A stretch of DNA of 64,000 bases from Candidatus Altimarinota bacterium (GTDB taxonomy: Bacteria; Patescibacteriota; Gracilibacteria; 1-14-2-50-48-13), in assembly GCA_046314355.1 (NCBI GenBank), contig JBKBWQ010000001.1, positions 1,555,056 through 1,619,055 on the forward strand. The letters run 5' to 3'. The notes below the pieces were generated by a model that did no database searches, was not told where the DNA came from, and was given only the letters and a program-made list of their open reading frames with translations. This document shows, piece after piece, positions 47,878-64,000 of this stretch. The translations under genes and the position numbers were made by a program. The first letter of the stretch is position 1, and each line of letters begins with the position of its first letter.

Positions 47878-49659
47878 ATGCCTCAAAATAATCTCCCCGA
47901 GTGGGATCTCTCAGACCTTTTCCCATCTCTGGAAAGCCCTGAATATAAAGCTGAACTTGAAAACATTCTCAAAGCAAAGGATGATTTTCTAAAATATAAG
48001 GATGCATTTTTAAACAATGATTTCTCTCCTGCAGATCTTTTGAAAATGATCAAAGACTATGAGCAGCTTGAGATACGGACACTACATATCTACGCATACT
48101 CTCATTTCCAGTATGATGTAGATACTACCAATGAGTTTGTAAAAGCTGAACATGAGAAGGCCAAGAAACTTGTGACGGATATTGCGACAGAGCTTGAGTT
48201 TTTCTCTCAGGGACTAAAAAATATGCCCCATGATGTTTTTGAGGAAATGAAGAAAGCATCCGAACTCTCAGAATATAAAAGATACCTTGAAGTCTTAAAA
48301 ATCTATGAGCCGTACACAAAGTCTGAGAGGGAAGAGCAGATTCTTACAATGAAATCTCTCTACGGCTCTCAGGCATGGGGACAATTCCATACAGAGCTCT
48401 CATCAGGTATGGATTTCGGGACACTTATGGTGGATGGGAAGGAAGAAAAGATGACTCCAGCGCGGCTTGGAAATATTATTACAAATTCTCAGGATCAAAA
48501 TCTTCGATGCGCGGCATATGAGGCAGGAAGAAAGCCTTTCAAGGAAAATAGCCATCTTTTCTCCTTTGCATTCAATGCCGTTGTCTCTGACTTCGAAATG
48601 GATAGCATGCAGATCAGAGGATACACTTCCGGACTTCACAGAGGTACTTTAGGTGAAGAAGTAACTGAGACCCATGTGGAAAATATGAGAAGCTTACTAG
48701 AAGAAAAAATTCCTGTATTTCAGGACTATTATAAATGGAAGAAATCACAGCTTGGCGTAGAGAAGATGCATACCTATGATCTCTCAGCACCACTTTCTTC
48801 AAAGCGGCCCAAGCTTACTTTCGATGAAGCTAAGGATTATGTACTTTCCTGCTATGGCAATTTTAGTGAGGAGTTCAGATCACATGCTTCACGTTTTTTT
48901 GATGAAAAATGGATTGATGCACGCGACAGCGGTACGAAATATGCAGGAGCATATTCTTGGTCTATGAATAAGCATCCATATATTCTACTCAACTTCCAGC
49001 CGAGTATCCAGCAGGCGATGACGATGATCCATGAGCTTGGTCACGGTATACATGCGCTTCTTTCCTCCAAAGGACAGCCTTTTCTGATAAGAGATACTTC
49101 CAAGGTCATTGCTGAGACTGCTTCACAGTTTTCAGAAATGCTCCTGCTTGATTATTTTGAGACGGTATTAGATGACAAGGATGTAGTAAAAGATCTTTTC
49201 GCAGCTCACATTGATGATGTTCTTTATTGTCTTGGAAGCACGCTTACGGTTACAGCCTTTGAAATAGAGACACATAAAAAATCCCTTACAGAAGGAATTT
49301 CCAAGGATGTTTTAAATAATCTTTGGGAAAATTTAATCAAGAATCTGTATGGAGATGCAGTGGAACTTACAGAATATGACAGATATTCATGGTCACGGAT
49401 CCCGCATATTTTTCAGTCTCCGTACTACTACTTCACTTATCCGATGAGTTTAGCGGTAGTGCTTACACTCTACGAACTCTATCTTGAAGATAAGGCGACT
49501 TTTGTAAAAAATTATACAAAGTTTTTAGAAGCCGGCGGAAGTATTGCTACACCGGAGCTTATTGAGAGCTCATTTGGGATTACTTTTGGAGACAGAGCTT
49601 TCTTTGAAAGAGCATTTAGAGTCGTGGAGAGAATGATAGAGAAGGTAAAGACAATGTAG
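47878..49659 (+). CDS. pepF: Oligoendopeptidase F (M3 family)
   Basis: WDLSDLF, WID.....K..GAY, PYILLNF, HELGHGIH, AETASQFSE, WSRIPH....YY.FTY. Confidence 0.9.
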   Translation: MPQNNLPEWDLSDLFPSLESPEYKAELENILKAKDDFLKYKDAFLNNDFSPADLLKMIKDYEQLEIRTLHIYAYSHFQYDVDTTNEFVKAEHEKAKKLVTDIATELEFFSQGLKNMPHDVFEEMKKASELSEYKRYLEVLKIYEPYTKSEREEQILTMKSLYGSQAWGQFHTELSSGMDFGTLMVDGKEEKMTPARLGNIITNSQDQNLRCAAYEAGRKPFKENSHLFSFAFNAVVSDFEMDSMQIRGYTSGLHRGTLGEEVTETHVENMRSLLEEKIPVFQDYYKWKKSQLGVEKMHTYDLSAPLSSKRPKLTFDEAKDYVLSCYGNFSEEFRSHASRFFDEKWIDARDSGTKYAGAYSWSMNKHPYILLNFQPSIQQAMTMIHELGHGIHALLSSKGQPFLIRDTSKVIAETASQFSEMLLLDYFETVLDDKDVVKDLFAAHIDDVLYCLGSTLTVTAFEIETHKKSLTEGISKDVLNNLWENLIKNLYGDAVELTEYDRYSWSRIPHIFQSPYYYFTYPMSLAVVLTLYELYLEDKATFVKNYTKFLEAGGSIATPELIESSFGITFGDRAFFERAFRVVERMIEKVKTM

Positions 49660-50406
49660 TTAACGGGGAAAGTGCAGCCCTCTTTCCAAAATACACTGAG
49701 TATAACTAGTGAATGAAAAAGATTTTTTGAGTAGTATGACAGCTTTTTCTTTGTCAAACGGTTTGCAGGAGAAGATATCCACAAAGAGAGACTGGGAAGG
49801 GATGTGATAGTGCAGAGAAATATGGGATTCAGCAATGACCCGCAGTGCACTGATCCATGTATCCGACTCCGTATGAAATACTTCAGTGAGCGGATGCATA
49901 TCAATCTGAGCGGGTATCTCTTCAAGATAATGGATGATTGTATCCTTAATGTCTTGGAGAGATGCTGCGCCGCTTAGTTGACCTTCAGCCATAAGGTGCG
50001 GTCCATAGATACGGGGGTTGTTAGCATGCTCGACACCGTGAGCGTATTCGAGTTGAGAGCGGACAAGCGTATGCTGGAGAGAGTATTTAGTCTTATATGC
50101 TGTATCAAGTGTAGAAAGTGCAGGTCTGAATTTTTCTTCAAAATTAAAAAAATCCAGAAAGAAACACTTCTTTTTATCATTAGTGTACGTGTGTACCGTT
50201 GCATGCATGCCAGGCGCAAGCAGACATCCCGTTACACCTTCCATATCAATATGCTGATCATCAGGGTAGTACAGGATATGTCTAAAGGCGGCTGTATTTA
50301 CTGTGCTGAAGTATTCTCTCAAGAGAGATTCATCCCGTAAGGATAAAATATCTGACGCATAACCATCGACGCACATATGGACTAATGGAGGCAATGCAGT
50401 TTGCAT
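49660..50406 (-). CDS. Tandem-domain SpeD-like (AdoMetDC-family) pyruvoyl decarboxylase, copy 1, cleavage site intact
   Basis: Domain 1 H..DGY...GVTG.LL.PGMHATVHTY (no ES); domain 2 GPHLM.E...VIAESHISLH...VDIFSCKPFD...ERG; start set at ATG 50406. Confidence 0.8.
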   Translation of the reverse strand: MQTALPPLVHMCVDGYASDILSLRDESLLREYFSTVNTAAFRHILYYPDDQHIDMEGVTGCLLAPGMHATVHTYTNDKKKCFFLDFFNFEEKFRPALSTLDTAYKTKYSLQHTLVRSQLEYAHGVEHANNPRIYGPHLMAEGQLSGAASLQDIKDTIIHYLEEIPAQIDMHPLTEVFHTESDTWISALRVIAESHISLHYHIPSQSLFVDIFSCKPFDKEKAVILLKKSFSFTSYTQCILERGLHFPR

Positions 50407-50437
50407 GGGATAAAATGAAAGTGAAGGATATGTATTT

Positions 50438-52507
50438 TTAAGTATGTACTTCTGTTTCATGTCCGGTAGGAAGAAAAATGCGGAAATGTGTCTCTACTCC
50501 AGGTTCACCTATTTCTTCGATCGTAGCATTATGAAGCTCTAAATAATGTTTTACAGTGCTAAGTCCCATACCTTCCTGATTTTCATCAGTGGTAAACCCT
50601 TCCTCAAAAATCTGTTTCTTCTGAGAATAGAGAATTCCGTCCCCTGTATTGATAAAGTCCATAAAGATACCAATACCTTTTTTCTCTACCTTCATGATAA
50701 TCTTTCCTTCATTTGGTGTAAACTGATAAGCATTATTGAGCAGTTCATCACAGATATTTTTTAGTTTTTCTCTATCAGCAAAAATAGATTCGTTTGTGAT
50801 ATGAAGCTTTTCCCATGTGAAATCAAACTCTTTTTCCTGCATTTTTGCCTGATATGAAGTAAATTCCTCAGTAAAGAACTCCTCCAGAGAGATCTTGCTT
50901 ATATCCAAAATATCCTCTTTCAATTTAAGCTGCTCATCCAGTTCCCAAAGATTTTTTTCCACTGACAAAAATTTCTCATGCCCCTTTTCCTTTTGCAGAT
51001 CCTGAAATACTGCAAGAGCTGACTGTACAGAATTCTGCATATTCTTCATACGTTCTCCCAGACTCTTATTCAATTCAAGAATTGTAGAAGACCGCTCCAA
51101 CTGCGTATTCTTTTCTTCACCTTCGTGACGAAGCAGATCATTCATAAGAAAGATCGCGATATAGTCCGAAAGATTTGTAAGACTCTCTATCTCTTCCTGA
51201 AAATACATATCCCGTGAACGCTTCTTTCCTAAGGTAAGGAATCCAATAAGTTCAGAGCGGAAGAAAAGAGGGAGACATACTGCTGCATTGAGGATATTGA
51301 GATGAAGAAACGCCTTATAATATTCTTCTGAAAGTGGTTTGTCAGAAAATTCTAATTCTTCAGTTACGAGAGGAAGACGATCTCTTTTTAAAAGATCAGT
51401 TAGCTCATTCGATGGGTATACAGGTAAAAATGGATGTTCTTTCTTTTCATTTGTCATAAAAATTTCAGCTCCGCTAATTGCAAGTTTCTGCGCAAAAGTG
51501 GCGTGCATATACTGAGTAAACTCTTTAAATTCTGAGGTAAATTTTAATTGCTCAATTAGGTCGCTTACATTTTTTTGAAAAGTACGTATATTACCTCCTA
51601 ATGTAAAGTTCTTTAAAATTCCAAGATACATTGTAGAGAAAGCCAAAATAGCCATTATACTTGTACAGACTAGTCGTATATTTCTATCTGGTACAAGAGA
51701 GAAAAGAAAATGATCGAGAACAAAAGTGAGACCAAGTGCAAGTAAAAGAGCAATAAACACTCTTAGTACCTTCGAAAAAATAATCTTGATACCAAGAAAC
51801 CGGTATTGAATCATGATAAACAGTACGCATAGCGCTACAGGAGCTGATGCGAGACCACCGATCATATAGTAGTCGACATGACCTAAACTAGGTAAAATTA
51901 CATTGGTAGTAAGTACAACAAGTGCAAATATCAGATATACTATATCAAGGTAAAGTAGCTTTCTTCTTGCTAGACCTGTGGTTCCAAAGCCTTTGAATAC
52001 AAGAGCCAAGAGAATTGTTATAAAACAGATACCATAATGTACAAATAACCATGGTAGCAGAGGTCCGAAGTTATCGGTAAATGAGCTGTCAGGTAAGATA
52101 ACAATTGAATCGTAGACGAGAGGTGTAAAGATAGATAATGCAAAAATCACTAATGCCTGAATCAAAAGCAATTTTCTTACCCAAAAATAGATTTTCTTTA
52201 AAATTGGTTTTTTAAGAAGGGGGGTATTTTCGAAAGGAAAAACAAAGTCACATAAAAATAATAGCATGTAGTAAGTAAATGCTACTGATGTGGCATAGGA
52301 TATACGTGCAATGAAAGTGATATTCTCAGGTGTAGATGAGACATTCTCTAGAGGTACACTATAGTATAGAGAGAAAAGCCAGGCTGCTGTAAAGAATAGA
52401 TAGGTTGAGAAGATTCTATTTATCTTCACATTAGGATTTATTACAAGACTTGCTATACTTGTGCCAAGAAGAGTAATTATTGTGAGAAAAAATAATATTG
52501 ACTCCAT
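50438..52507 (-). CDS. Multi-TM + GAF + HATPase sensor kinase, copy 1, lacking the H-box His
   Basis: About 9 TMs; GAF (LPL...ELIGFL.LGKK.S.D.Y..EE); H-box position reads RMKNMQNSV; N/G1/F/G2 boxes present. Confidence 0.85.
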   Translation of the reverse strand: MESILFFLTIITLLGTSIASLVINPNVKINRIFSTYLFFTAAWLFSLYYSVPLENVSSTPENITFIARISYATSVAFTYYMLLFLCDFVFPFENTPLLKKPILKKIYFWVRKLLLIQALVIFALSIFTPLVYDSIVILPDSSFTDNFGPLLPWLFVHYGICFITILLALVFKGFGTTGLARRKLLYLDIVYLIFALVVLTTNVILPSLGHVDYYMIGGLASAPVALCVLFIMIQYRFLGIKIIFSKVLRVFIALLLALGLTFVLDHFLFSLVPDRNIRLVCTSIMAILAFSTMYLGILKNFTLGGNIRTFQKNVSDLIEQLKFTSEFKEFTQYMHATFAQKLAISGAEIFMTNEKKEHPFLPVYPSNELTDLLKRDRLPLVTEELEFSDKPLSEEYYKAFLHLNILNAAVCLPLFFRSELIGFLTLGKKRSRDMYFQEEIESLTNLSDYIAIFLMNDLLRHEGEEKNTQLERSSTILELNKSLGERMKNMQNSVQSALAVFQDLQKEKGHEKFLSVEKNLWELDEQLKLKEDILDISKISLEEFFTEEFTSYQAKMQEKEFDFTWEKLHITNESIFADREKLKNICDELLNNAYQFTPNEGKIIMKVEKKGIGIFMDFINTGDGILYSQKKQIFEEGFTTDENQEGMGLSTVKHYLELHNATIEEIGEPGVETHFRIFLPTGHETEVHT

Positions 52508-52561
52508 GAAAGGGGGGATTTGCTAATATTGAAATACTGAGGATTACTTATTTATTATACA

Positions 52562-53641
52562 TTATGCGTCTGTTTCCTGACGACCCTTTTTATATTCAGC
52601 TTGGTTACGTTCTATGAACTGTTCTACTGTGGGTGGAAAGTAATCAATATAATCTTGTAGTTTTTTTGCAAATAGCATAAGTTTAATATTTGGAACAATA
52701 CCATCGCAGATATCTATTCCCCCTGCTGCCCTTAGCTGAGCATAGAGTGTAGTTTTTTTATTAGCTTCACCAACAATTGGCAATTGTTTGTATTCTGATG
52801 GCATTTGATCTAAAAATTTTTTGCATATATTGAAAAAATTTTCAAGACCACGATGACCGTTCAAGATCACTAGAATACTCCAGTTATAAGCAAGCGTTTC
52901 ATCATTAAATGTTATATCTAAATGTTCCCCGACTTTTTGCTTATATTCTTCCATCAATCTTTCCTCTTTCTCATAAAATTTTTTAAATTCATGATCATAA
53001 ATCTTTCCAAAAGGAGCCGCATATCCTCCAGCATAACCAACGAGCTCTCCCTCTTCAGTTTTTAGCAATGATATGTGCCCATTTTCGGTAAACTTGCTTT
53101 GAAAGTCATCTTTCACATAATCATGTTCCCAAAATTTTGCTAATTCTGTTGTTGTATGGTCTGTACATGCTAGTTCCTGCAATTTTTGAGCTTTTGTTTC
53201 AGGTAACTCTAATTTTTCAAGGGATTTAATGTTTACATCGGCACCTTTGTCAAATTTAAAGTATTTTTCGGCTGAAACCTTATAATTACATTCCGGATGA
53301 GAGCATTTATAGTATTCTCCCCATGGATATGTAGCAAAACTTTCGATATATTCTTGAACAATAACCTCTACTTCTTCATCGCTAATCTCAGAAAAAGGTT
53401 TTACTTCAACATGATATTTTACTTTCTTCCTCTCCGGAGATTTTTCAGTATCTTTTATATCATTTAAAGCTGCTATAACTTGTTCATGTACCTGTTTTTG
53501 CACAGCTTCAGAGAGTGTTGGTTGTTCAGAAAGTCCAGTCTCTGTAGATATTTCTTTCTCCTTTGCTAAAGGTAACTGTACTGGCATTTCGAGTGAATGC
53601 AGTACATTATTATCTTCTACTGGCTGCTCTGAAAGAGGCAT
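52562..53641 (-). CDS. GNAT-fold acyltransferase-like protein with Cys/His insert, copy 1
   Basis: F...PWGEY.KC....C..KVS, C..H, GELVGY..GY, V....HRG, LY..L.AAG. Confidence 0.6.
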   Translation of the reverse strand: MPLSEQPVEDNNVLHSLEMPVQLPLAKEKEISTETGLSEQPTLSEAVQKQVHEQVIAALNDIKDTEKSPERKKVKYHVEVKPFSEISDEEVEVIVQEYIESFATYPWGEYYKCSHPECNYKVSAEKYFKFDKGADVNIKSLEKLELPETKAQKLQELACTDHTTTELAKFWEHDYVKDDFQSKFTENGHISLLKTEEGELVGYAGGYAAPFGKIYDHEFKKFYEKEERLMEEYKQKVGEHLDITFNDETLAYNWSILVILNGHRGLENFFNICKKFLDQMPSEYKQLPIVGEANKKTTLYAQLRAAGGIDICDGIVPNIKLMLFAKKLQDYIDYFPPTVEQFIERNQAEYKKGRQETDA

Positions 53642-53764
53642 ATCTTGAGAATTAATTAATAATAGTGCTACTTTTATGTTTTGAATGAGATCCGGGATGC
53701 AATGGCTTGTATATTAATCTATATTCTAATTGGAATTTTATATAGGACAATAAGAAAATATTCA

Positions 53765-53802
53765 TTGCTTCCATATATGCTACCTGCTACTATGTTGCAT
53801 AT
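53765..53802 (+). promoter_or_regulatory. Promoter TTGCTT-17-TACTAT overlapped by palindrome ATATGC.AC-N10-GT.GCATAT (possible metal-repressor operator)
   Basis: Inverted repeat 53775-53802 directly upstream of the metal ABC operon. Confidence 0.45.
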
Positions 53803-53820
53803 TGATATGATACTTTTTTT

Positions 53821-54720
53821 ATGAAAAATTTTCGATCCCTTTTCTGTGCTGTTGTACTGCTACTAGCGGTCTCTTGTACAAGCCAAACTAGTATTTCTGA
53901 AAATAATTCTGGTGCAAAACTACAAGTGGTCACTACCTTCGCTCCACTTTATTCCATGACGGTAAACGTGGCAGGAGAATACGCGGATGTAAAAAATCTT
54001 GTTCCCATTGGTTCAAGTGAGCATACCTATCAAGCTCGACCGAGTGATATAGCTCTTCTTTCAAAAGCTGACCTTGTAATAAAGAATGGTGTGAATCTTG
54101 AAGGATTTCTTGATCCATTACTACAATCCTCAGAACATGAAGGGCGGACAATTATTGATACGAGCAGCGGAGTGACATTACTTACGGGATTGGATGAAGA
54201 GGAAACTTCAGGTGATCCTCATATCTGGCTGAGTATTTCAAATGCTGTTATTCAGGTAAAAAATATTGAAAGTGCTCTTAGTCTGAAGGATCCTGCACAT
54301 GCAGATAGATATAAATTCAATGCTGAGACTTACATAACACGCTTAAATACTCTTGAGGCTTCTTTAAAGAATCAAATGTCTTCAACTACAAAAAGACCCT
54401 ATATTCTTTTTCATGATGGATTCCAGTACTTTGAAAAAGAGTTTGATCTTAAGTCCTCCGGTGTCGTAGAAGAGTTTCCCGGTAAAGAACCGAGTGTGGA
54501 ATATATGAAGAATCTCTATGATACTATTGAGCAGGAAAAAGTAAAAGTTGCTTTTACAGAGCCTCAATTTTCTCCTAAAATAATTGATCAGCTCCAGAAG
54601 AGGTTTAATCTTGTGACCGCTGAGTTAGATACAGTTGGTACCACTCTGAGTAAAGAAAGTTATGAAAGATTAATGATGAATAATATAGAGTCTTTTCTAA
54701 ATGCATTCTCTAAAGCTTAA
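53821..54720 (+). CDS. znuA: Zn/Mn ABC transporter substrate-binding protein (ZnuA-like)
   Basis: Lipobox-like LAVSC; EHTY..RPSD, DPHIWLS, FHDGFQYF, EPQF. Confidence 0.85.
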   Translation: MKNFRSLFCAVVLLLAVSCTSQTSISENNSGAKLQVVTTFAPLYSMTVNVAGEYADVKNLVPIGSSEHTYQARPSDIALLSKADLVIKNGVNLEGFLDPLLQSSEHEGRTIIDTSSGVTLLTGLDEEETSGDPHIWLSISNAVIQVKNIESALSLKDPAHADRYKFNAETYITRLNTLEASLKNQMSSTTKRPYILFHDGFQYFEKEFDLKSSGVVEEFPGKEPSVEYMKNLYDTIEQEKVKVAFTEPQFSPKIIDQLQKRFNLVTAELDTVGTTLSKESYERLMMNNIESFLNAFSKA

Positions 54721-54724
54721 TAAT

Positions 54725-55423
54725 ATGTCTAAAGAAACGCTACTGTCAGTGGAAAACCTTTCTCTGCGTATGCAGCAGACAGATATATTAAAAGGTGTCT
54801 CCTTCTCCGTAAAAAGGGGCGAATATGTAGCTCTTATCGGTCCCAACGGCTCAGGAAAAACCTCACTTCTAAAAATTATTCTTGGACTATATGGTCCGAG
54901 TTCTGGTCATTTTAAGCTTCATACTTCTGAGATTGGCTATGTGCCTCAAAAATTAGATATAGATAAAACTATTCCTATTTCCGTAGAAGAATTTCTCAAA
55001 GTATACCATCCTGATTTCGGAAAAATAGAAGGGGATTATGATGTACTTTCTTCTCTTGATGCAAAGAAGCTTCTTAAAAAAAAGCTGGGAGTTTTGAGTG
55101 GGGGAGAATTACAGAAGATACTGATAGCAAATGCAGTGCTCCGAAAGCCTTCATTGCTTCTTCTTGATGAACCAACTGCGGGTATCGATGCGATAGGTGA
55201 AAAATACTTCTATGAATATATGCAGAAATATATCGAAGAATGTAATGCTAGTGTCGTGCTGGTATCTCATGATATGCATATGGTGTATCAATACGCATCT
55301 CAAGTACTTTGTCTCAAGGTCAGTCTCCAGTGCCAGGGGACACCTGATGAGGTTACTTCCTGTAATGCATTTCAGGATATGTTTGGAGCCTCTACTACAC
55401 ATTTTCACCATTATCATAAATGA
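54725..55423 (+). CDS. znuC: Metal ABC transporter ATP-binding protein
   Basis: GPNGSGKT, IGYVPQK, LSGGELQK, LDEPT.GID, His-rich tail. Confidence 0.85.
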   Translation: MSKETLLSVENLSLRMQQTDILKGVSFSVKRGEYVALIGPNGSGKTSLLKIILGLYGPSSGHFKLHTSEIGYVPQKLDIDKTIPISVEEFLKVYHPDFGKIEGDYDVLSSLDAKKLLKKKLGVLSGGELQKILIANAVLRKPSLLLLDEPTAGIDAIGEKYFYEYMQKYIEECNASVVLVSHDMHMVYQYASQVLCLKVSLQCQGTPDEVTSCNAFQDMFGASTTHFHHYHK

Positions 55424-56247
55424 ACATACTTTTAGAACCATTTCAGTATGATTTTTTTGTCCGCGCACTTTTCATGGGAGCTCTCATGGGTGTAGTCTGT
55501 GCACTTCTTGGTATATTTGTGATAATGCGTAGAGAAGCATTGATGAGTCATGCGCTTGCAAATACTGCATTTCTTGGTATCGCGATGGGACTACTTCTGG
55601 GGATCAATCTCCATTGGAGCATGTTTGCACTGACGCTTATTTCTGCAGTGGTGATCTCATATCTTCAGCAGCGGAGGAGTCTGCCTGAAGATTCACTTCT
55701 TGAATTTATCGCCCAGCTTACCTTTGCATTTGCCGTGATTTGTATCTCTTTGCTCCAAGGGTACCGTGTGGATCTTTTTCAATATCTCTTTGGAGATATA
55801 CTAGGGGTTTCCTCATCTGATGTGTGGATACAAGCTCCGATCCTTATTATTCTCCTTTTAATATTTCTTGCACTAAAACGGCAGTTTTTAAAACTTACTC
55901 TCAGCCGCGAACTTGCAGTGAGTCAGAAAGTACCAATATTTTTTCTCAATACTCTCTTTCTTATGCTTGTGGCGATTGTGGTTGCGATAGGTATGAAAGT
56001 AATCGGTGTCATTTTGATCTCAGCCTTTCTTGTTTTACCCGCGAATACTTCCAGAATTCTTTCTTCAAATTTTAAAAGTATGCAGATCGGTGCGGTAATA
56101 GTAGGATTACTTGGAAGTACCCTTGGATTATTTTTATCCTATTATTTCAATATCCCAAGCGGTGCAAGTATAGTTCTTACATTAAGTATATTGCTAATCA
56201 CCGCATTCTTTATTAAGATAGTCAGAGAATCAGCTGTAGGAAAATAA
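55420..56247 (+). CDS. znuB: Metal ABC transporter permease
   Basis: LG.FV..RR..LM.HAL, YLFGDIL, VIG.ILISA.LV.PA, PSGASIV; ATGA overlap with znuC. Confidence 0.9.
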   Translation: MNILLEPFQYDFFVRALFMGALMGVVCALLGIFVIMRREALMSHALANTAFLGIAMGLLLGINLHWSMFALTLISAVVISYLQQRRSLPEDSLLEFIAQLTFAFAVICISLLQGYRVDLFQYLFGDILGVSSSDVWIQAPILIILLLIFLALKRQFLKLTLSRELAVSQKVPIFFLNTLFLMLVAIVVAIGMKVIGVILISAFLVLPANTSRILSSNFKSMQIGAVIVGLLGSTLGLFLSYYFNIPSGASIVLTLSILLITAFFIKIVRESAVGK

Positions 56248-56266
56248 TTATTACCCTCAAAACCCT

Positions 56267-57166
56267 ATGCCTAGAATTATTATCGATGCAGGACATGTGG
56301 ACAATGTGGATCCTGGAGCAGTTGCAAATAACACCACTGAGCACGCAGAGGTGAAAAGAATTGCATTGTATATTATGGAGAAAGTAAAAACTTTACCTGA
56401 GTTTTCAGGATATCAGTTTATACTTGTCCCCACTGACAAGACTCTGACCCAGAAGATTGCATATATCAATAGTGTCGCAACCGCCAGTGACTATACGATC
56501 AGTATTCATCTCAACTCTGCCTCCCCACAGGCGACAGGTACAGAGGTATACTTCCGTACTGAGAATATGACTCACAAGAACAAAGCGCTTCTTTTGCAGG
56601 CTGGTGCAGTGTCTGTATTGAGATTGCAGGATAGAGGAGTCAAAGGTGATACAACTACCGGTCATGGACGGCTTGGTATCATACGAGATACAGTCACCAC
56701 CTCACTTCTCATTGAGCTTGGATTTATTACAAACATCTCTGATCTCAACACTATTCATCGCTCAGGGGGAGATGCGGTTATTGAAGGAATCCGACGTATT
56801 TTTCGACTTAGCCCTTTACCCCCAACGCCAGTGGATCTTACTATACTCAGAAATCTTGAAGCTACTTTTGATACGCTGCTTCGACAGGGACTTGCTCTCA
56901 CCACGCAAGAGCAGACTGTTTTAGCTGCTAGAAAGGAATGGAGGCTTCGCATGGATCAGGTTAGAGGACAAATTCTTGCTCAAATTGCTACTCACCAAGC
57001 TGTACTCAAACCTGAATTTGTTCAGTATGAAACCGTGATTATCAAAGAGTATGCAGTATCAAATCATGATCTTATTGGTAAACTAGATGCTGGTCTGCAG
57101 CAAAGAGCGATCTGGGATGCAAATATGGCACAGATAAGAAGAGATGAAAAACCTTACCAGCCTTAG
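56267..57166 (+). CDS. N-acetylmuramoyl-L-alanine amidase (Amidase_3) with helical C-terminal extension
   Basis: IDAGH...DPGA, TE, SIHLNS, GTEVY, RGVK, LIELGFITN. Confidence 0.9.
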   Translation: MPRIIIDAGHVDNVDPGAVANNTTEHAEVKRIALYIMEKVKTLPEFSGYQFILVPTDKTLTQKIAYINSVATASDYTISIHLNSASPQATGTEVYFRTENMTHKNKALLLQAGAVSVLRLQDRGVKGDTTTGHGRLGIIRDTVTTSLLIELGFITNISDLNTIHRSGGDAVIEGIRRIFRLSPLPPTPVDLTILRNLEATFDTLLRQGLALTTQEQTVLAARKEWRLRMDQVRGQILAQIATHQAVLKPEFVQYETVIIKEYAVSNHDLIGKLDAGLQQRAIWDANMAQIRRDEKPYQP

Positions 57167-57167
57167 G

Positions 57168-57965
57168 TTATTTATAGAGAAAAACCCCCTGTGGAACCTC
57201 AGCATATTTAGATGATTTATCTTTTGGAAAGTACATGCCTCTTTCCAAAAGATTATGAGTACTATTTTTGAAGATAAATTTTTCTTTCAAGAGATAAAGT
57301 ATCTTAGCATCATCAAAAGGGTTACAAGAAAAGACATCTAAAAAAATCATCCGGCTTTCAATATGATAATGGATGGAAAGATGAGCTTCTGAACTTACTC
57401 GTAACGCACTCAGCCACTCTTTCGACTCAATTTGAAAAACCTGTGTGAGAGAATTTATACTTATTTCAGAAGGAAGATCTGTTAAAAATTCTCTAATATG
57501 TTTTCTCATAAATGTTGAGGATCTTTCCTCCACTTGTAGTTCTGTCATGAGATGAGGTATATGGGTGCTCGTCTTAGATGCTGGATATGTCCCCGGCATC
57601 AAGGTTTGGTGTTTTCTGACTATCGTATTTTGGATGCTATAGTCACTTTCATAAGATCCATCCAAGTATATAAGCGCATTTCTATGTTTTCTTTCTTCAA
57701 AACCAAAGAAGTCTAAAAAGTAGCACTTCTTTTTATTATTAGTATAGGTATGTACTGTTGTATGCTGTCCTGGTCCAAGTAGGAACCCTACAACGCCTTC
57801 CATAGCGTTTCCAAGATCATCTGGAAAGTAGAGGATGCGTGTAAATCCTGACTTTTTAACAGAACGGAAGTAAATACTCAAGAGTTCTTCATTCCGGAGA
57901 GAAGAAGTTTCTGCTAAATAGCCGTCAATGCAGAGGTGAATTTTGTTGGGAAAACTATCCTTCAT
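57168..57965 (-). CDS. Tandem-domain SpeD-like protein, copy 2, predicted unprocessable (EAH instead of ESH)
   Basis: Collinear paralog of 49660..50406; domain 2 reads VSSEAHLSIH...DVFSCNPFD. Confidence 0.8.
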   Translation of the reverse strand: MKDSFPNKIHLCIDGYLAETSSLRNEELLSIYFRSVKKSGFTRILYFPDDLGNAMEGVVGFLLGPGQHTTVHTYTNNKKKCYFLDFFGFEERKHRNALIYLDGSYESDYSIQNTIVRKHQTLMPGTYPASKTSTHIPHLMTELQVEERSSTFMRKHIREFLTDLPSEISINSLTQVFQIESKEWLSALRVSSEAHLSIHYHIESRMIFLDVFSCNPFDDAKILYLLKEKFIFKNSTHNLLERGMYFPKDKSSKYAEVPQGVFLYK

Positions 57966-58038
57966 AAGATGATTCTAAGATAATAGATAAAACTATTATA
58001 CAAAAAAAGAGTGAATCAAATGTGAATATTTCCTGTGC

Positions 58039-60123
58039 TTATTTAAATGATGGTGTGGGAAATAGAGTAATAGAAGGCTCCTCATAGGGAAGTATAATCC
58101 TAAAGTGTGTTTCTACACCTGCTGTTCCTATTTCTTCAATGCTTCCATTATGCATTTCGATATATTCTTTTACGGTTGCTAGTCCAATTCCACTTCCTCG
58201 TTCTGTGTCTGTAGTAAATCCTTGTTCGAAAATTTTTTCCTTATGTGTAGGTAGAATTCCATTCCCTGTATTGATAAAATCAATAATAAATACATTCATC
58301 TTCTTCTCTACGCATAGGACTACTTTTCCTTTATTTGGTGTAAACTTATATGCGTTATTGAGTAAATTCTCACAAATACTATGTAATTTTGAACGATCTG
58401 CATATAAAAATTCATTTTCCAAATGTATGCTCTCCAAAGTAAAATCAATTTCTTTTTCCTTCATAAGATCCTGATGTGACAGGAATTCTGACTGAAAAAA
58501 GTCTTCTGCAGAAATAATCTTTTTATGAAGTGTGTCATCTTTGAGTGAGAGTTTATCTTCCATTTCCCAGAGATTTTTCTCTATTTTTAGCACTTTATTA
58601 TCCGACTCTTTTACTTTTATATCCCGGATTACTGCCATAGCAGATTGAAGAGAATTTTTCATATCATGCATACGTTTCTTTACGAGCTCATTTGTTTTGA
58701 ATACTTCCTCAGAACGCTTAAGTTGAGCACTTTTCTCTGTTCCCTCATGTCTAAGAGAGTCATTGACAAGAAATATAGCAATATAATCAGACAAACTCGA
58801 TAGTGCCTCTAACTCCTCCAGGAAATACATATCTTGAGAGAACTTTTTCCCAAGAGTCAGGAACCCTATAAGTTCTGTTCTAAAGAAGAGAGGGATACAG
58901 ACTGATGCATGTAAGATACTCAAATGAACAAGTGCTTTATAATACTCCTCCGATAATGGTCTTTCAGAGAATTCCAGCTCCTCGGTAACTAACGGCTTGC
59001 GGTCCCGCTTAAGAATATCTGTCAGTTCATTTTCTGGATAGATAGGAAAGAAACGGTGTTCAGTTTTTTCATTTGTAATAAAGATTTCAGCTCCGCTAAT
59101 ACCAAGTTTCTGCGTAAAAGCAATACGCATATTCTGGCTGAATTCATTAAACTCAGACGTGAATTTAAGATCTTCAATAAGGTCATCAATACTTTTCTGA
59201 AATGATCCTTGATACTTCGTTTTAAGCACTGTAAAGCGTATCATATAAAAGCTTGCGATTGCGATTATCGCATTAAGAGAAAGGCGCAGCGATATATTCT
59301 TGAGCAGGTAGAGAATAGTATTATCAAAGATATATGCAGTAAAGAGTGCTACACCGAGAGAGAGAACTATACGAAGTACATTGGAAAAGATGATCTTCGT
59401 TCCAAGGAACCTGTAATGCACTATGATATAAACTGTAATAAGTGCAAACGGCGCAGTGGCAATGCCTCCAAGCAAGTAGTAATCAGGCTTACCAAAATTT
59501 GGGAGGATAACATTACATAATATAGTCAGTCCGTAACAGCAGAGGTATGTTACAAAAAGCATAATCAACTTCTTTCTAGGAAGTCCTTCAGCAAAAAAGA
59601 TCTTGATGGTAGGTATGATCAGGCATAAGACAAAATAGAAATAGTGATGCTGAGAAGACCAATCAATCAAGGGACCGAAATAATCAACAATTGACCCATC
59701 AGGATTTACTCCTGTTGATTGATAAATGAGAGGAGTAAAGACAGATATAAATGCGAGTAAAAATGTTTCAACACCAAGAAGAGTCTGAAAAAACTTAATA
59801 TACTTTTTTGAGGATTTTATGACGGGATGATCTATGGATTCGAGAGAAAATACAAATTTGCTCAAGAAGAGAAGAACAAAGTAGGGAAACAGTGCAGCAG
59901 CTCCATAAGCTATCCGTGCAGATATACTGATTCCGGAAACGGTGTATCCCTCATAAGTGGGTATGGCGAGATACAGAGTAAGCAGCCATACAAAAGTGGA
60001 GATAAGGTAATAGAAGAATATTCTATTTACCTTCGAACGGAAATTGTAGAATAGTATAGAAATTGCTGTTCCAAAAACTATGACAATAGTCAGGAAGTAG
60101 AGACTTGTCTGGAAATATTCCAC
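58039..60123 (-). CDS. Multi-TM + GAF sensor histidine kinase, copy 2, H-box intact
   Basis: GTG start; about 9 TMs; GAF; RMHDMKNSL H-box; NLLNNAYKFT, NTG.GI, IFE.GFTT, GSGIGL. Confidence 0.88.
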   Translation of the reverse strand: MEYFQTSLYFLTIVIVFGTAISILFYNFRSKVNRIFFYYLISTFVWLLTLYLAIPTYEGYTVSGISISARIAYGAAALFPYFVLLFLSKFVFSLESIDHPVIKSSKKYIKFFQTLLGVETFLLAFISVFTPLIYQSTGVNPDGSIVDYFGPLIDWSSQHHYFYFVLCLIIPTIKIFFAEGLPRKKLIMLFVTYLCCYGLTILCNVILPNFGKPDYYLLGGIATAPFALITVYIIVHYRFLGTKIIFSNVLRIVLSLGVALFTAYIFDNTILYLLKNISLRLSLNAIIAIASFYMIRFTVLKTKYQGSFQKSIDDLIEDLKFTSEFNEFSQNMRIAFTQKLGISGAEIFITNEKTEHRFFPIYPENELTDILKRDRKPLVTEELEFSERPLSEEYYKALVHLSILHASVCIPLFFRTELIGFLTLGKKFSQDMYFLEELEALSSLSDYIAIFLVNDSLRHEGTEKSAQLKRSEEVFKTNELVKKRMHDMKNSLQSAMAVIRDIKVKESDNKVLKIEKNLWEMEDKLSLKDDTLHKKIISAEDFFQSEFLSHQDLMKEKEIDFTLESIHLENEFLYADRSKLHSICENLLNNAYKFTPNKGKVVLCVEKKMNVFIIDFINTGNGILPTHKEKIFEQGFTTDTERGSGIGLATVKEYIEMHNGSIEEIGTAGVETHFRIILPYEEPSITLFPTPSFK

Positions 60124-60166
60124 AGGAGAGATGATTAGAATTTTATCTTATTCTAGTAGAAAAAAC

Positions 60167-61390
60167 TTACCGCGCAACTGCAATTGGCTGTTTATAGCCG
60201 ATAGTATCCAAGACGGCTACTTCTTCTGGTGATTCTCCTCCTACTGCTCTCCAGCTTTGCTTTTGCATTTTCTTATAGGTTTTATATAAAGGACCGTTCT
60301 CCTGCATATAATTCTCAGGTGTTTTACAAAAAAAGTTCTGTAAATCTTTGACTTGTTTTCCTAGAAGGATCATCACATAACCCTCATATAAACTCTCACA
60401 AATATCACTTGCGCCAGCTGCTTTTAATGTGTTGTAGAAATCAATTCCTCTATTACATTCACCTGGCATTGGGAGATGTGCAAATTTTTCAGGTACTGAG
60501 GATAATATTTTTCTACAGATATGGACAAAATTATCAAAACTTTTTCTATGTGCCTTACTAATACCAAGCATATTCCATACATACACAGAAGAATCTAGGT
60601 TAAATTCCTTACCAAGTACCGTCGAACTTCTTGTAATATACTTAAACATGAGATCTGGATCTTCACTATGAAGCTTAAATTCATGTGCTAGTGCTTCTCT
60701 GAATGAGCTTTTATATCCCCATGTATAACCTACTAGTTCCGCCCCATTTGTTCTCAATAGTGTGATTTGTCCTTCATGTTTAAATTTTCCCTCCAGACTT
60801 TTCCGTAGATCTTCTTTACTAATATAATCAACGAGTTCGTGAGTATCCTTGTGTGCAGGACATTCTGGACAATCATCAGCCTTATTCCCATGAGCTTCCA
60901 ATTCTTTTAAAGGTACATCCACTCCTTTCGTGCCATAGTACTCCTCGACTGAAACCTTGAAAAGACATGAAGGATCACCGCATTTCTTGTATTCACCCCA
61001 AGGTTGAGAACCGAAGTCCTCTCTATAATTCTCTATAAGCTCATTCATATCCTTTACTGTAATTTGATCTAGGCTTTTTGTCTCAAGAAAGTATTTATCA
61101 GAAATGCGTTCTATATCTATCTGCGGTGCAGCTATTACTTCATGTACTTTTGATAGAACATCACTCTTAAATCCTTCAGCATGACGTGACCTATGCGAAG
61201 TTATTTCGGTAGCTCTGAGAGAAAAATTACTTATAAGCTCATTACGCAGAAGTTCAATATCGAATTGTGGAGAAATTGTTTTTGTTGCTGATAGGCTCAC
61301 GGCAAGCGGTATATTTTTTTGTGGCGATTTGGTAGAGGTATTCATTGATAATAGATTATCAATACTCTTTGCCGCTTGAGCTGGTGTCAT
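60167..61390 (-). CDS. GNAT-fold acyltransferase-like protein with Cys/His insert, copy 2
   Basis: F...PWGEYKKC....C..KVS, CPECPAH, ELVGYTWGY, I...HRK, FY..LKAAG. Confidence 0.6.
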   Translation of the reverse strand: MTPAQAAKSIDNLLSMNTSTKSPQKNIPLAVSLSATKTISPQFDIELLRNELISNFSLRATEITSHRSRHAEGFKSDVLSKVHEVIAAPQIDIERISDKYFLETKSLDQITVKDMNELIENYREDFGSQPWGEYKKCGDPSCLFKVSVEEYYGTKGVDVPLKELEAHGNKADDCPECPAHKDTHELVDYISKEDLRKSLEGKFKHEGQITLLRTNGAELVGYTWGYKSSFREALAHEFKLHSEDPDLMFKYITRSSTVLGKEFNLDSSVYVWNMLGISKAHRKSFDNFVHICRKILSSVPEKFAHLPMPGECNRGIDFYNTLKAAGASDICESLYEGYVMILLGKQVKDLQNFFCKTPENYMQENGPLYKTYKKMQKQSWRAVGGESPEEVAVLDTIGYKQPIAVAR

Positions 61391-61481
61391 AGAAAGGGGA
61401 TGATTAAAGTATATATTTACTTTAAAAGATCCTATGTAAATGAATCGTGAAAAAAAACAGTGGAGTAGGAACTATAAGATT

Positions 61482-61509
61482 TTGACAAATAAAAATAATA
61501 AGAGATAAT
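61482..61509 (+). promoter_or_regulatory. Promoter TTGACA-16-GATAAT
   Basis: Upstream of the response regulator, divergent from module 2. Confidence 0.55.
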
Positions 61510-61614
61510 GGAATTATCGGTATGCTAAAAATTAGCGACAATCTTCAAAAAAATAGAAAAAATAAAGACAAATACTGCTCTTTAAAATTTCTATTTCATA
61601 TCACCCTCTCTGAT

Positions 61615-62310
61615 ATGCACAATATACTTATTGTGGAAGATGAACGTGTCATTGCGCAAAGTCTTCAAAAATACCTGCAGAAATCATCTTATAATGTTTC
61701 TGTAGCATACACCTATGATGATGGCTTATCGCAGGCCTTATCGTTGGTGCCAGATATCTTATGTGTAGATATCTCTTTAGGCTGTAGTAAAACAGGTATG
61801 GATCTGTGTGACGAAGTAAGAAAAGTCAGACCGAATATACCGTTACTCATTGTTACGGCAAACTCATTAGAAGACTATATGGAAGAGACCCTCTCACTTG
61901 GTCTTACCGATTACATTTCAAAACCATACCATCCGGAAGAAATACGAATTCGTATTGATCATTTGATGCGCATGCAGAAAAAATATCCACTTTTAGAACC
62001 AATCTCTGCTGAGATTGAGACTATTGCAGATGATTTTGTGGTGATGCACAATAATTCAAAAGTAGTGATTAATGGTGAAGAAAAGCATGTTCCTAAGACT
62101 TTGAAACATCTGCTGGATTTGCTTCTTGAACACCGTAATACTATCGTCTCTCACCAGTATCTGCATGAGAAAATATGGGGAGATTATTTTGACGTAGAAA
62201 AAAAACGTGAAATACGCGCTCATACAAAACGTTTGAGACATATATTAGGTCCAAAGTACGGTCCTAAACTGCAGAATGTCAAATCCCAGGGGTATATTTT
62301 TACTTTTTAA
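61615..62310 (+). CDS. OmpR-type response regulator (REC + wHTH)
   Basis: ILIVEDE, PDILCVD, VTA, YISKPY; LL..LL....IVS...L...IWG, H.KRLR..L, V...GY; start set at ATG 61615. Confidence 0.9.
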   Translation: MHNILIVEDERVIAQSLQKYLQKSSYNVSVAYTYDDGLSQALSLVPDILCVDISLGCSKTGMDLCDEVRKVRPNIPLLIVTANSLEDYMEETLSLGLTDYISKPYHPEEIRIRIDHLMRMQKKYPLLEPISAEIETIADDFVVMHNNSKVVINGEEKHVPKTLKHLLDLLLEHRNTIVSHQYLHEKIWGDYFDVEKKREIRAHTKRLRHILGPKYGPKLQNVKSQGYIFTF

Positions 62311-63013
62311 ATATATCCTTGTCCATTTCAGTAAAGAAACCATACCAGCCTCCCCATGAATTTTGGATGTGATCTGCATAGGTACCGAGAGCTTTTCTAA
62401 TGATGAGAATATGTGCTTTCACACTCATCCCTGTGTAGGAGTCGGCATCCTTCGTTGCCTGAGTGATCTCACTTGAGTGAATATACTGATTTGGTCTTCT
62501 AAATAGATAAGAGAAAACTAGAAGAGATAATCTTCCTAGAGGTATAAGTTTGCCGTTAATAGTTAACATATTATGCTCTTCATCCACATGGATTGCCCGG
62601 TATACTTCATGATCAGGAAGAATATTTTTCTTTTCTTTAGATTTATCTTTTTGTTCTTCCACTAGTTTTATGGCCTTTTTAACGATGAATACATCTAGAT
62701 TTCTTTTTTCGAGGAATGTATTTGCTCCAGCTTCCATCATCTGCGCTATAAGCTCATTATCTACCTCGGAGGCAGTAAACATAATAATAATACTATTTGG
62801 ATTCCGGCTTCTGGCTTTTCTACAGAGTTCTATTCCTTCTGCATATTTTTCACTGAGGTGTATATCAAGACAGAAAATATCATAACTAATATATCCTAAC
62901 CTTTCACTTGCCTCAAAATAGTTATTGTAGCAGTCTACTGTGTATCCATCATGAAAACATCTTTCAAGAATAGAGGTGATAGTAGGATTATCATCTACAA
63001 TAAGTACGCGCAT
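62300..63013 (-). CDS. OmpR-type response regulator (REC + wHTH), convergent with 11-bp overlap
   Basis: VLIVDD, YDIFCLD, FTAS, FLEK; VKAHI..IRK.LG, I.N.WG..Y. Confidence 0.85.
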   Translation of the reverse strand: MRVLIVDDNPTITSILERCFHDGYTVDCYNNYFEASERLGYISYDIFCLDIHLSEKYAEGIELCRKARSRNPNSIIIMFTASEVDNELIAQMMEAGANTFLEKRNLDVFIVKKAIKLVEEQKDKSKEKKNILPDHEVYRAIHVDEEHNMLTINGKLIPLGRLSLLVFSYLFRRPNQYIHSSEITQATKDADSYTGMSVKAHILIIRKALGTYADHIQNSWGGWYGFFTEMDKDIFKK

Positions 63014-63208
63014 ACAGGAGATATGAAGAAATAAAAACTCATATATATTTTCTATAATTATACTCTTTGAACTGTAGTGTATCTATATAAAAAATTAATT
63101 CTATACAAAAATACTCATAATACACATTTTATATGAATATGTGGATAATATAGTACAACATGGGAGTGAAAACTTGGTAAAAAACAATAGGTTTTTACTC
63201 CTATACAG

Positions 63209-63240
63209 AGAAAAGAGACATTTTTTTATGTCTCTTTTCT
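63209..63240. terminator. Intrinsic terminator
   Basis: AGAAAAGAGACA...TGTCTCTTTTCT. Confidence 0.7.
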
Positions 63241-63265
63241 TGTAAATAATGACTGGCTGTTTTTC

Positions 63266-63718
63266 TTACTCTTTTAAGAGTTTGATAGTAATAGGTACGC
63301 CTTTATAAGATCCTGCTGTCTCCTCAATAGGATTCTCACCTCTCTGTACTTTGTCAAGTACAGGACTAATACGGTTCCAGACGCTATCTGAGATAGTTCC
63401 AGGAAGATTTAGCTCTAAGGGAGCCTTAAAGAAACCAATACCAGCAGCTACCTTTGCAACTGCATGATCAGTCTGCCATTCAAGTCCGTTGAAGTCGATG
63501 GAAAGTCCTGCGGAAATCTCGTATTTATAGTTTTGACTTCCAAGGGTTAGATGATCTTTGGAGAGAGTAAGTACTTGAGGCTGTCCGTTTACAGGAACTG
63601 TAAGAGTAAGGGGCTGATTGTTTATGTCCACACTGCTAGCTGCAAGAGTAGTCTTCAACTGCTCATACACTGTATTAAGTTCCTGTGGAGAAATAATAGA
63701 AGCTGGAGCGTCTGCCAT
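63266..63718 (-). CDS. Hypothetical protein
   Basis: 150-aa ORF followed by a terminator. Confidence 0.7.
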   Translation of the reverse strand: MADAPASIISPQELNTVYEQLKTTLAASSVDINNQPLTLTVPVNGQPQVLTLSKDHLTLGSQNYKYEISAGLSIDFNGLEWQTDHAVAKVAAGIGFFKAPLELNLPGTISDSVWNRISPVLDKVQRGENPIEETAGSYKGVPITIKLLKE

Positions 63719-64000
63719 GGAGAAAAGAAAAAGGATAATCTGTAATAATTATATCATAGATCTTGTCATTTGTGACCAAAAATGTGTCATTCCCGTACTG
63801 ATCTTCATCAGCATAAATTCCGACGGGAACCCATTGCGGGGTATTGGTTTATTCAACTAGTGTTCTTATAGTGTTCACAAATGTTCTTATAAGAAATAAA
63901 GGTTCGGGTGAAGTGAAGGGTGTTTGATGACATAGGTGGTTTCTTCTTCACCTGCCGGTGGGGCGTTACTTTTGTGACCAAAAGGTAACCAAAAGTCTTG

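Follow-up and report, generated by a model that had tools for sequence, protein, structure and literature searches.

A GNAT-like/sensor kinase gene pair with tandem SpeD-like decarboxylase genes in a Candidatus Altimarinota bacterium: a candidate small-molecule signalling cassette

LuxN-type kinases are hybrids with a C-terminal receiver domain, and LuxM-LuxN, AinS-AinR and PhcB-PhcS are pairs of an autoinducer synthase and a membrane receptor kinase. PrsK, the kinase of the PEP-CTERM system, has an N-acyl amino acid synthase of acyltransferase fold encoded nearby, and its partner PrsR is an NtrC-type regulator. For CqsA/CqsS, the synthase gene lies beside the receptor-kinase gene and CqsA binds its kinase, according to the available part of PMC13729885. 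Here, a 64,000-nt stretch of contig JBKBWQ010000001.1 from a Candidatus Altimarinota bacterium (the window, whose numbering is used for all positions) was analysed, in which a GNAT-like gene, a sensor kinase gene and a tandem SpeD-like gene occur twice in the same order and strand.

In gene layout, the locus resembles pairs of the CqsA-CqsS type: an enzyme gene adjoins one for a polytopic histidine kinase lacking a periplasmic domain, and several paralogous pairs occur per genome. It differs from them in that the cassette enzyme belongs to an orphan GNAT-fold family, distinct from LuxI, LuxM, CqsA and PhcB, in that the cassette kinases carry a GAF-like domain and no receiver domain, and in that no source of acyl-ACP (acyl carrier protein) was found in the genome. 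With PrsK, the kinases share the order of multiple transmembrane (TM) segments, GAF and kinase domains, and kinase 2 aligns to the NCBIfam model TIGR02916 from GAF to HATPase with 66.7 bits, far under its 300-bit cut-off; unlike the PrsK system, OmpR-type regulators lie beside copy 2 and the GNAT-like proteins match no NCBIfam model. The cassette would work like the synthase/receptor-kinase pairs in its layout, yet it belongs to neither the LuxI nor the LuxN family. No published account of a GNAT/7TM-GAF kinase cassette was found in the literature search, and the words GNAT, acetyltransferase, histidine kinase and decarboxylase are all absent from a quorum-sensing survey of candidate phyla radiation (CPR) bacteria (PMC7567580).

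A conserved GNAT-like/kinase gene pair

The conserved unit is the GNAT-like gene together with the kinase gene, not the trio. Among 66 GNAT-like open reading frames (ORFs) counted at E < 1e-10 in loci scanned with custom hidden Markov models, the window's two included, 57 are followed directly by a same-strand family kinase that shares the TM, GAF-like and catalytic parts; the two genes are spaced by -417 to +260 nt, in most cases by less than 100 nt. The coupling of the GNAT-like protein to a co-encoded kinase, proposed in a preliminary description of the window, was in this way borne out. For 3/66 a second GNAT-like gene precedes the kinase, 2/66 lie at contig ends, and 4/66 have no adjacent kinase (one with a kinase 728 nt off, one kinase-less double GNAT-like ORF, and two weak generic GNAT matches). 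A regulator was observed within 6 kb of the GNAT-like ORF in 57/66. The class search behind these loci gave 79 places, 2 in the genome of the window and 77 elsewhere. Of the latter, 68 are covered by the 63 loci that were fetched, and the 9 weakest, all with E of at least 1.2e-9 and matching only the model core, were left out. Two loci, L103 and L113, stand outside the E < 1e-10 count, the latter with the GNAT-like/kinase pair and the former without it, and L116, from a second class of this phylum, adds one more pair. The pairing is therefore documented only in Genome Taxonomy Database (GTDB) genomes of the same class and of one other class.

The GNAT-like family was found in 3 of 41 genomes (the 40 nearest relatives and the own genome), in 6/401 genomes of the phylum sample, and in 66/401 genomes and 47/229 genera of the class sample. 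A full HMMER search gave 373 representative clusters at E <= 1e-3 and 194 at E <= 1e-10. A search for related loci with a less diverged alignment of the family gave no relatives in the genome and metagenome contigs.

Across 47 pairs, the divergence of the GNAT-like protein correlates better with that of the kinase TM domain (r 0.67, and partial r 0.54 when the catalytic part is accounted for) than with that of the kinase catalytic part (r 0.51; partial r 0.22). Between kinases 1 and 2, identity is 39% in the TM domain, 73% in the GAF-like domain, 45% in the dimerization and histidine phosphotransfer (DHp) domain and 57% in the catalytic ATP-binding (CA) domain, so that the TM domain, together with the GNAT-like proteins (35%), is most diverged between the window paralogues and the GAF-like domain least. 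Both the co-divergence and the pattern among the paralogues are expected if enzyme and sensor recognise one changing molecule.

Within the window, the repetition of three genes in one order and strand holds as first described, with both trios on the minus strand (Table 1). In BLASTP comparisons the two copies are 35% (GNAT-like, E 2e-56), 52% (kinases, E 0.0) and 48% (SpeD1 and SpeD2, E 2e-85) identical, and by these alignments the three gene pairs are true paralogues, with similarity far above chance. Two OmpR-type regulators likewise adjoin copy 2. Regulator 1 has Pfam matches to Response_reg (9.3e-22) and Trans_reg_C (8.7e-11), and its acidic pocket, Asp, Thr and Lys are all present when the sequence is read by eye. 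Regulator 2 matches Response_reg (3e-16) and, at 3.7e-4 and 21 bits, Trans_reg_C under the Pfam cut-off of 26.2. Both regulators therefore have the receiver and winged-helix Trans_reg_C domains of the OmpR/PhoB type, the DNA-binding match of regulator 2 being weak.

Table 1. Positions of the two trios and the adjoining regulator genes in the window
Feature	Protein	Positions	Strand	Length (aa)	Remarks
GNAT-like protein 1	P0001	52562-53641	-	359	copy 1, first gene
Sensor kinase 1	P0003	50438-52507	-	689	copy 1, second gene
Tandem SpeD-like protein 1 (SpeD1)	P0005	49660-50460	-	266	copy 1, third gene
GNAT-like protein 2	P0002	60167-61390	-	407	copy 2, first gene
Sensor kinase 2	P0004	58039-60123	-	694	copy 2, second gene
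Tandem SpeD-like protein 2 (SpeD2)	P0006	57168-57965	-	265	copy 2, third gene
OmpR-type response regulator 1		61522-62310	+		divergent from GNAT-like 2
OmpR-type response regulator 2		62300-63013	-		convergent with regulator 1, overlaps its end

In most of the related loci, the kinase gene is followed directly by a small gene for a lone receiver domain (about 120-140 aa), which tends to be on the opposite strand (e.g., L055 12725-13111, L058 5091-5480 and L066 5948-6352). The window has no such gene, and the SpeD genes take that place. One genome (G712:C1; L062, L073) carries two double GNAT-like fusions of 614 and 641 aa, one followed by a kinase and the other with no kinase nearby. The eight genes at 49660-63013 all stop at TAA and contain no in-frame TGA, whereas in many relatives of the same class the homologue is interrupted by 5-18 in-frame TGA codons. 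The class is therefore a mix of standard-code and TGA-recoded lineages.

Features of the encoded proteins

GNAT-like proteins 1 and 2 gave no Pfam match (E <= 0.01) and no NCBIfam match, and the family is, as judged against these two catalogues, an uncatalogued orphan; a profile search of PDB sequences with the family gave no chain below E 0.16. In GNAT-like protein 1, about 70 disordered N-terminal residues precede the GNAT-fold core, and C113, C118, C159 and H162 make up a Cys/His cluster. The AlphaFold model of this protein is of moderate quality (pLDDT, the predicted local distance difference test, 65). In a Foldseek search of this model against PDB, insect arylalkylamine/dopamine N-acetyltransferases (5gi6, 4fd5) were the best matches (E 9e-5, probability 1.0, TM-score about 0.5 by target length). 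Ranks 1-13, and most lower ranks, are GNAT enzymes or GNAT-fold toxins (TM-score 0.5-0.58 by target), puromycin N-acetyltransferase is also among the best structural matches, and the structure matches GNAT clusters of the ESM Atlas with TM-scores of 0.55/0.82. The proteins model as an amine-acetyltransferase-type GNAT fold, and the original assignment of the first gene product as GNAT-like stands on this comparison, with GNAT acetyltransferases on top though no Pfam or NCBIfam model was matched. Unlike the arylalkylamine/dopamine enzymes, to which identity is 10-14%, the GNAT-like proteins have a Cys/His insert and a long disordered N-tail, do not match Pfam GNAT families, and do not conserve the acetyl-CoA loop.

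The loop of GNATs that binds the pyrophosphate of acetyl-CoA has the motif Q/R-x-x-G-x-G/A. It is intact in the copies P0007 and P0008 of genome G037, and P0001 and P0002 keep only its Arg. Among 37 aligned GNAT-like sequences, Gly202 is the only nearly invariant residue, and catalytic-type residues are poorly conserved. Most members carry an insert of the form Cys-x2-4-Cys ... Cys-x2-Cys/His, zinc-ribbon-like in appearance. GNAT-like protein 2 has higher identity to its metagenome orthologues P0012 (77%) and P0013 (58%) than to P0001 (35%). In a subgroup (P0009, P0017 and P0018; L054 and L056), the disordered N-terminal tail contains a short motif, rich in Thr and Arg and with (I/L)-P-(L/I) after it, that may serve for docking.

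For the third gene product, the description as a tandem SpeD-like protein agrees with the Pfam domain AdoMet_dc (PF02675), which was matched by SpeD1 with 80.4 bits in two stretches and by SpeD2 with 61 bits (cut-off 25). In both proteins the N-half has neither the Glu-Ser processing site nor the Cys, yet is well conserved. The C-half of SpeD1 retains Ser212, His and Cys, which correspond in the alignment to 1vr7/1tlu to S63, H68 and C83 of the S-adenosylmethionine decarboxylase (AdoMetDC) of T. maritima, residues whose roles are given in the available part of PMC10407285. SpeD2 retains the His and Cys and has Ala194 (GCT) at the pyruvoyl-serine site; its motif reads Glu-Ala, against Glu-Ser in SpeD1 and in the homologues P0161-P0163, and resembles PDB 1tmi, the engineered non-processing mutant S63A of the T. 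maritima enzyme. Since the metagenome protein P0163, 62.6% identical to SpeD2, retains the Ser, its loss from SpeD2 is recent. The Ser, His and Cys used for self-processing are thus complete in the C-half of SpeD1 and incomplete in SpeD2, and SpeD1 alone of the two is predicted to be able to form the pyruvoyl cofactor. The true start of SpeD1 is probably Met19; its database copy P0160 begins at residue 19.

The SpeD1 model superimposes with its C-half on 1vr7 (TM-score by target 0.82), the whole model being poor (pLDDT 55), notably in the N-half. Matches of the tandem model to potato AdoMetDC and to the T. brucei AdoMetDC/prozyme are weak (E 0.013-0.026), with an N-half too poor to judge a pseudo-dimer. 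Scores against the AdoMetDC equivalog TIGR03330 are 63.6 and 44.6, both below the cut-off of 75.65, and beyond the second His the residues are unlike those of T. maritima AdoMetDC. SpeD1 and SpeD2 are the only SpeD homologues in their genome. P0164, from an 847-nt metagenome contig, is 217 aa long, starts like the tandem SpeD N-half (58% identity) and has a HATPase-like end of different composition; it is probably a chimeric or miscalled ORF.

The tandem proteins resemble class 1b AdoMetDC and the SpeD1-SpeD2 fusions of Li et al. (2023; PMC10407285, as far as the available text goes) in the AdoMet_dc domain, in the two SpeD-like halves per chain and in the Ser/His/Cys triad of the SpeD1 C-half. 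In the fusions described in that text, a true AdoMetDC makes up the N-half, and the C-half is either degraded or has become an ornithine decarboxylase. The window proteins differ from these in that it is their N-half that is degraded, in that their genes lie beside a kinase gene and not beside speE, and in that SpeD2 has no serine. By motifs read by eye, the halves of a fusion in genome G676 resemble the SpeD-SpeDC type of the same source.

The trio as a whole is not conserved as a unit. SpeD occurs with the GNAT-like/kinase pair in only six genomes from five families (G000, which is the window's own genome, G037, G469, G580, G676 and G735): fused to the C-terminus of the GNAT-like protein directly upstream of the kinase in G037 and G469, as a SpeD of 130 aa after the kinase in G580, as a two-domain SpeD divergent from the cassette in G676, and 4 kb off in G735. 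PF02675 is present in 50/401 class genomes, mostly far from the pair. In the TGA-recoded G676 locus (L097, contig C2, 7431-8267, minus strand) the two-domain SpeD has 279 aa, an N-half like canonical AdoMetDC and a C-half with a Glu-Thr-Ser type motif, and is divergent from a regulator, two GNAT-like genes and a kinase.

Other enzymes are fused to the GNAT-like domain upstream of the kinase, namely a pyridoxal phosphate (PLP) decarboxylase of the Orn/Arg type (G011), a SET domain (G445, G015 and G436), a class-I methyltransferase (G573 and G033) and, in other loci, a second GNAT-like domain. Among 31 long metagenome representatives, SET was found in 10, methyltransferase in 4, PLP decarboxylase in 2 and AdoMet_dc in 2. 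The PLP-decarboxylase and SET domains that were read have intact catalytic motifs, judged against motifs as commonly known. Two unrelated decarboxylase folds on the same GNAT-like domain point to a possible sequence of amine formation and then modification. The fusion to the unrelated PLP enzyme fits the earlier idea of an amine that is produced by the decarboxylase and then modified by the GNAT.

Both kinases have about 9 hydrophobic segments in residues 1-300 by hydropathy scan, followed by a GAF-like domain, a shortened DHp and HATPase_c. Of the architecture originally outlined (about 9 TM segments, GAF and HATPase), the TM segments and HATPase_c hold, and the GAF matches (20 and 17 bits) remain under the Pfam cut-off; for kinase 1 the values are 2.3e-14 for HATPase_c and 8e-4 for GAF_2. 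At the phospho-accepting His site kinase 1 has Lys488 (codon AAG), whereas kinase 2 has His486 (CAT) in its H box. In an alignment to relatives, the H-box His is present in 50/51 family kinases, and kinase 1 with its Lys is the sole exception. Kinase 2 thus has the phospho-accepting His and both regulator genes adjacent; kinase 1 has neither the His nor a neighbouring regulator gene.

No Response_reg domain was found by Pfam in P0003 or P0004, both of which stop right after HATPase_c, and the top 25 of 54 and of 66 NCBIfam matches for the two kinases cover only the generic catalytic region and include no LuxN model, which places them outside the LuxN family to which they had been likened. PF16927 (HisKA_7TM) is matched by the G037 homologue with 34.5 bits (cut-off 28.6); the window kinases do not match it, yet align to that homologue over the entire TM region. 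A complex prediction with alignments for kinase 1 residues 300-689 and GNAT-like protein 1 residues 70-359 gave a score of 0.00, had no controls and counts neither way.

The genome, which is 98% complete, encodes an archaeal-type S-adenosylmethionine (SAM) synthetase (C1:1408823-1409920) and three canonical GNATs. In searches of this genome no bacterial MetK, no ACP (PP-binding), no ketoacyl synthase and no PLP ornithine or arginine decarboxylase was found. As the preliminary description held, no spermidine synthase lies within the window, and the single ORF with a Spermine_synth domain (507 aa) is about 1.49 Mb away. The GNAT-like proteins have no Autoind_synth match (Pfam, E <= 0.01), and TofI ranks 39 by fold (E 0.018). 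Because of this, and because no ACP or ketoacyl synthase was found, LuxI-type long-chain acyl-ACP chemistry is unlikely, and the comparison with LuxI-type synthases was not upheld. Acetyl-CoA is a possible donor for the GNAT-like enzyme.

Between the trios, on the opposite strand (53821-57166), lie a ZnuA/ABC ATPase/ABC-3 permease operon for zinc uptake and an Amidase_3 (N-acetylmuramoyl-L-alanine amidase) gene. Zinc might also be bound by the Cys/His cluster of the GNAT-like proteins. Upstream of regulator 2, an ORF of 150 aa (63266-63718, minus strand) has no match to Pfam, NCBIfam or the custom receiver model. When 49000-64000 was scanned for promoters and terminators, the counts were those of chance (promoter-like sites: 54 observed, 51 expected; terminator-like sites: 6 observed, 9 expected), and no obvious common regulator site was seen in the upstream regions of both copies read by eye. 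A search of sequencing runs gave no RNA run that holds the locus; the single run found to hold it is probably from the source sample.

Proposed circuit and competing explanations

The reading favoured here, tentatively and at somewhat less than an even chance, is that an amine-derived signal is made by the decarboxylase and the GNAT-like enzyme and is read by the co-encoded kinase. A short pathway to a kinase-linked N-modified amine is suggested by the tight enzyme-kinase operon, the separate regulators, the fusions to decarboxylases of two folds and to a SAM-dependent methyltransferase, and the amine-acetyltransferase-type fold. Its core would be a two-gene cassette, a GNAT-fold enzyme gene immediately upstream of the gene for a polytopic kinase with about 9 TM segments, HisKA_7TM-like and GAF-like, with OmpR-type regulators nearby. 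In the own genome, this cassette would have acquired a tandem SpeD-like pyruvoyl decarboxylase, after which the entire trio would have been duplicated. The decarboxylase would convert an amino acid or SAM to an amine, the GNAT-like enzyme would N-acylate the amine with acetyl-CoA as the probable donor, the acylated product would be the ligand of the kinase membrane domain, and the kinase would relay the signal to the two OmpR-type regulators. Signal and receptor would both be self-made, and the head-group chemistry may vary by lineage with the accessory enzyme (SpeD, PLP decarboxylase, SET, methyltransferase or second GNAT-like domain).

Since kinase 1 lacks the phospho-accepting His and SpeD2 the pyruvoyl Ser, the two modules most likely act as one circuit and not independently. 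Activity would rest with SpeD1, kinase 2, the two regulators and both GNAT-like proteins; kinase 1 is probably a co-receptor or a pseudokinase acting via kinase 2, and SpeD2 would be a non-catalytic partner.

Several points weigh against this signal pathway. The disabling substitutions in kinase 1 and SpeD2 could be plain decay of redundant copies after duplication, although other organisms still have both lineages of paralogues. As conservation within the kinase is highest in the GAF-like domain, which is cytoplasmic, an intracellular ligand is conceivable. The acetyl-CoA loop Q/R-x-x-G-x-G/A is not conserved over the GNAT-like family in the 37-sequence alignment, and CoaE and phosphotransacetylase, like ACP and ketoacyl synthase, were not found in the genome searches. 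SET domains are known as protein-lysine methyltransferases and not as small-molecule enzymes. Most loci have no SpeD-type decarboxylase within 6 kb (by custom models; other decarboxylase families were not screened for), and a GNAT-like or 7TM-kinase match was found in 0/80 metagenome loci of SpeD relatives, about 35 of which are at least 7 kb long and the others shorter. In the mirror-tree correlation, common ancestry and saturation (mean distances 0.67-0.80) are confounding factors. The cassette has no transporter gene, and the chemistry of the proposed pathway is deduced from gene content.

A self-made signal with its receptor is ranked first among the explanations, a sensor coupled to the modification of an external amine second, and a protein partner, protein modification and polyamine synthesis lower. 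In the second of these, which is unlikely, the kinase would sense an ambient or host-derived amine or polyamine that the GNAT-like protein acetylates, neutralising or assimilating it in the manner of SpeG, and the SpeD-like proteins would supply or balance the pool. The fold is indeed nearest to amine N-acetyltransferases (SpeG is at Foldseek rank 33), co-divergence of enzyme and TM sensor would be expected just as much from shared recognition of a single external compound, and most loci are without a nearby SpeD-type decarboxylase; the genome has no other amine route, as no PLP ornithine or arginine decarboxylase and no further SpeD homologue were found. Disposal of an amine is, however, served less well than synthesis by GNAT-like fusions to decarboxylases of two folds, and by gene layout the kinase is co-transcribed with the enzyme and not with the regulator, which is unusual for regulated detoxification genes. 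Also to be considered, at a distinctly lower probability, is a GNAT-like protein that acts as a cytoplasmic partner of the kinase, binding a metabolite (acetyl-CoA or SAM-related) and docking on the kinase, or as an activator of the pyruvoyl decarboxylase like PanZ/PanM. The gene pairs are tight and often overlap, the poor conservation of catalytic-type residues around a single nearly invariant Gly would suit such a role, GNAT-SpeD fusions occur, and there are precedents in the available parts of the sources, CqsA binding and inhibiting CqsS (PMC13729885) and the GNAT-fold PanZ/PanM controlling the maturation of pyruvoyl PanD (PMC4410942, PMC3398536). As with PanD-PanZ/PanM in those parts, a GNAT-fold protein is here genetically coupled to a self-processing pyruvoyl decarboxylase; unlike there, the decarboxylase has another fold, and the GNAT-like family is mostly without a pyruvoyl enzyme and is also fused to a PLP decarboxylase. 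That fusion, to an enzyme with no need of self-cleavage, and the intact SET and methyltransferase domains argue for a pathway enzyme, and GNAT-like divergence tracks the TM domain above the cytoplasmic catalytic part. The activator idea in particular was placed low, as the PLP-decarboxylase fusion counts against it.

Covalent adaptation, with the kinase or the regulators as targets of acetylation or methylation by the GNAT-like, SET and methyltransferase domains, much as chemoreceptors are tuned by CheR/CheB, is very unlikely. SET and GNAT domains, both classic protein-lysine modifiers, are fused together directly upstream of the kinase, but decarboxylase partners of two folds have no role in protein modification, and no conserved target lysine was identified. 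Ordinary polyamine synthesis beside a two-component system, with SpeD1 as the AdoMetDC of the cell feeding the 507-aa Spermine_synth-domain protein, is the least probable of these explanations and highly improbable. In its favour, SpeD1 and SpeD2 are the sole SpeD homologues of a genome that has one aminopropyltransferase-like ORF and an archaeal-type SAM synthetase, and the SpeD-SpeD fusions known from the available part of PMC10407285 are polyamine enzymes. It is opposed by the twofold three-gene order with both paralogue lineages retained in other organisms, by the physical fusion of SpeD to the GNAT-like domain in G037 and G469, by the AdoMetDC equivalog scores below the cut-off, and by the residues past the second His that are unlike the T. 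maritima enzyme.

Returning to the self-made amine signal, the layout of the cassette suggests that these ultra-small bacteria may make and sense a small-molecule signal of their own. A broader formulation, doubtful though conceivable, is that these host-dependent bacteria have a widespread, undescribed autoinducer-like system in which a GNAT-fold synthase and a 7TM-GAF receptor kinase co-diversify and swappable accessory enzymes set the head group, giving lineage-specific N-modified amine signals; in the present genome, two channels would be joined in one output via a His-less co-receptor kinase and a serine-less pseudo-decarboxylase.

CPR bacteria depend on other cells or are attached to them, and how they sense their partners or each other is almost wholly unexplored. 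An unclassified enzyme family (the 373 clusters mentioned above) with a dedicated membrane kinase offers a concrete, testable entry point to CPR sensing, and the natural His-to-Lys kinase and Ser-to-Ala decarboxylase are ready-made controls for the merging of paralogous modules. If the product is an N-modified amine, it would be a new chemical class in bacterial signalling, and tandem and fused SpeD-like decarboxylases would gain a role beyond polyamine synthesis.

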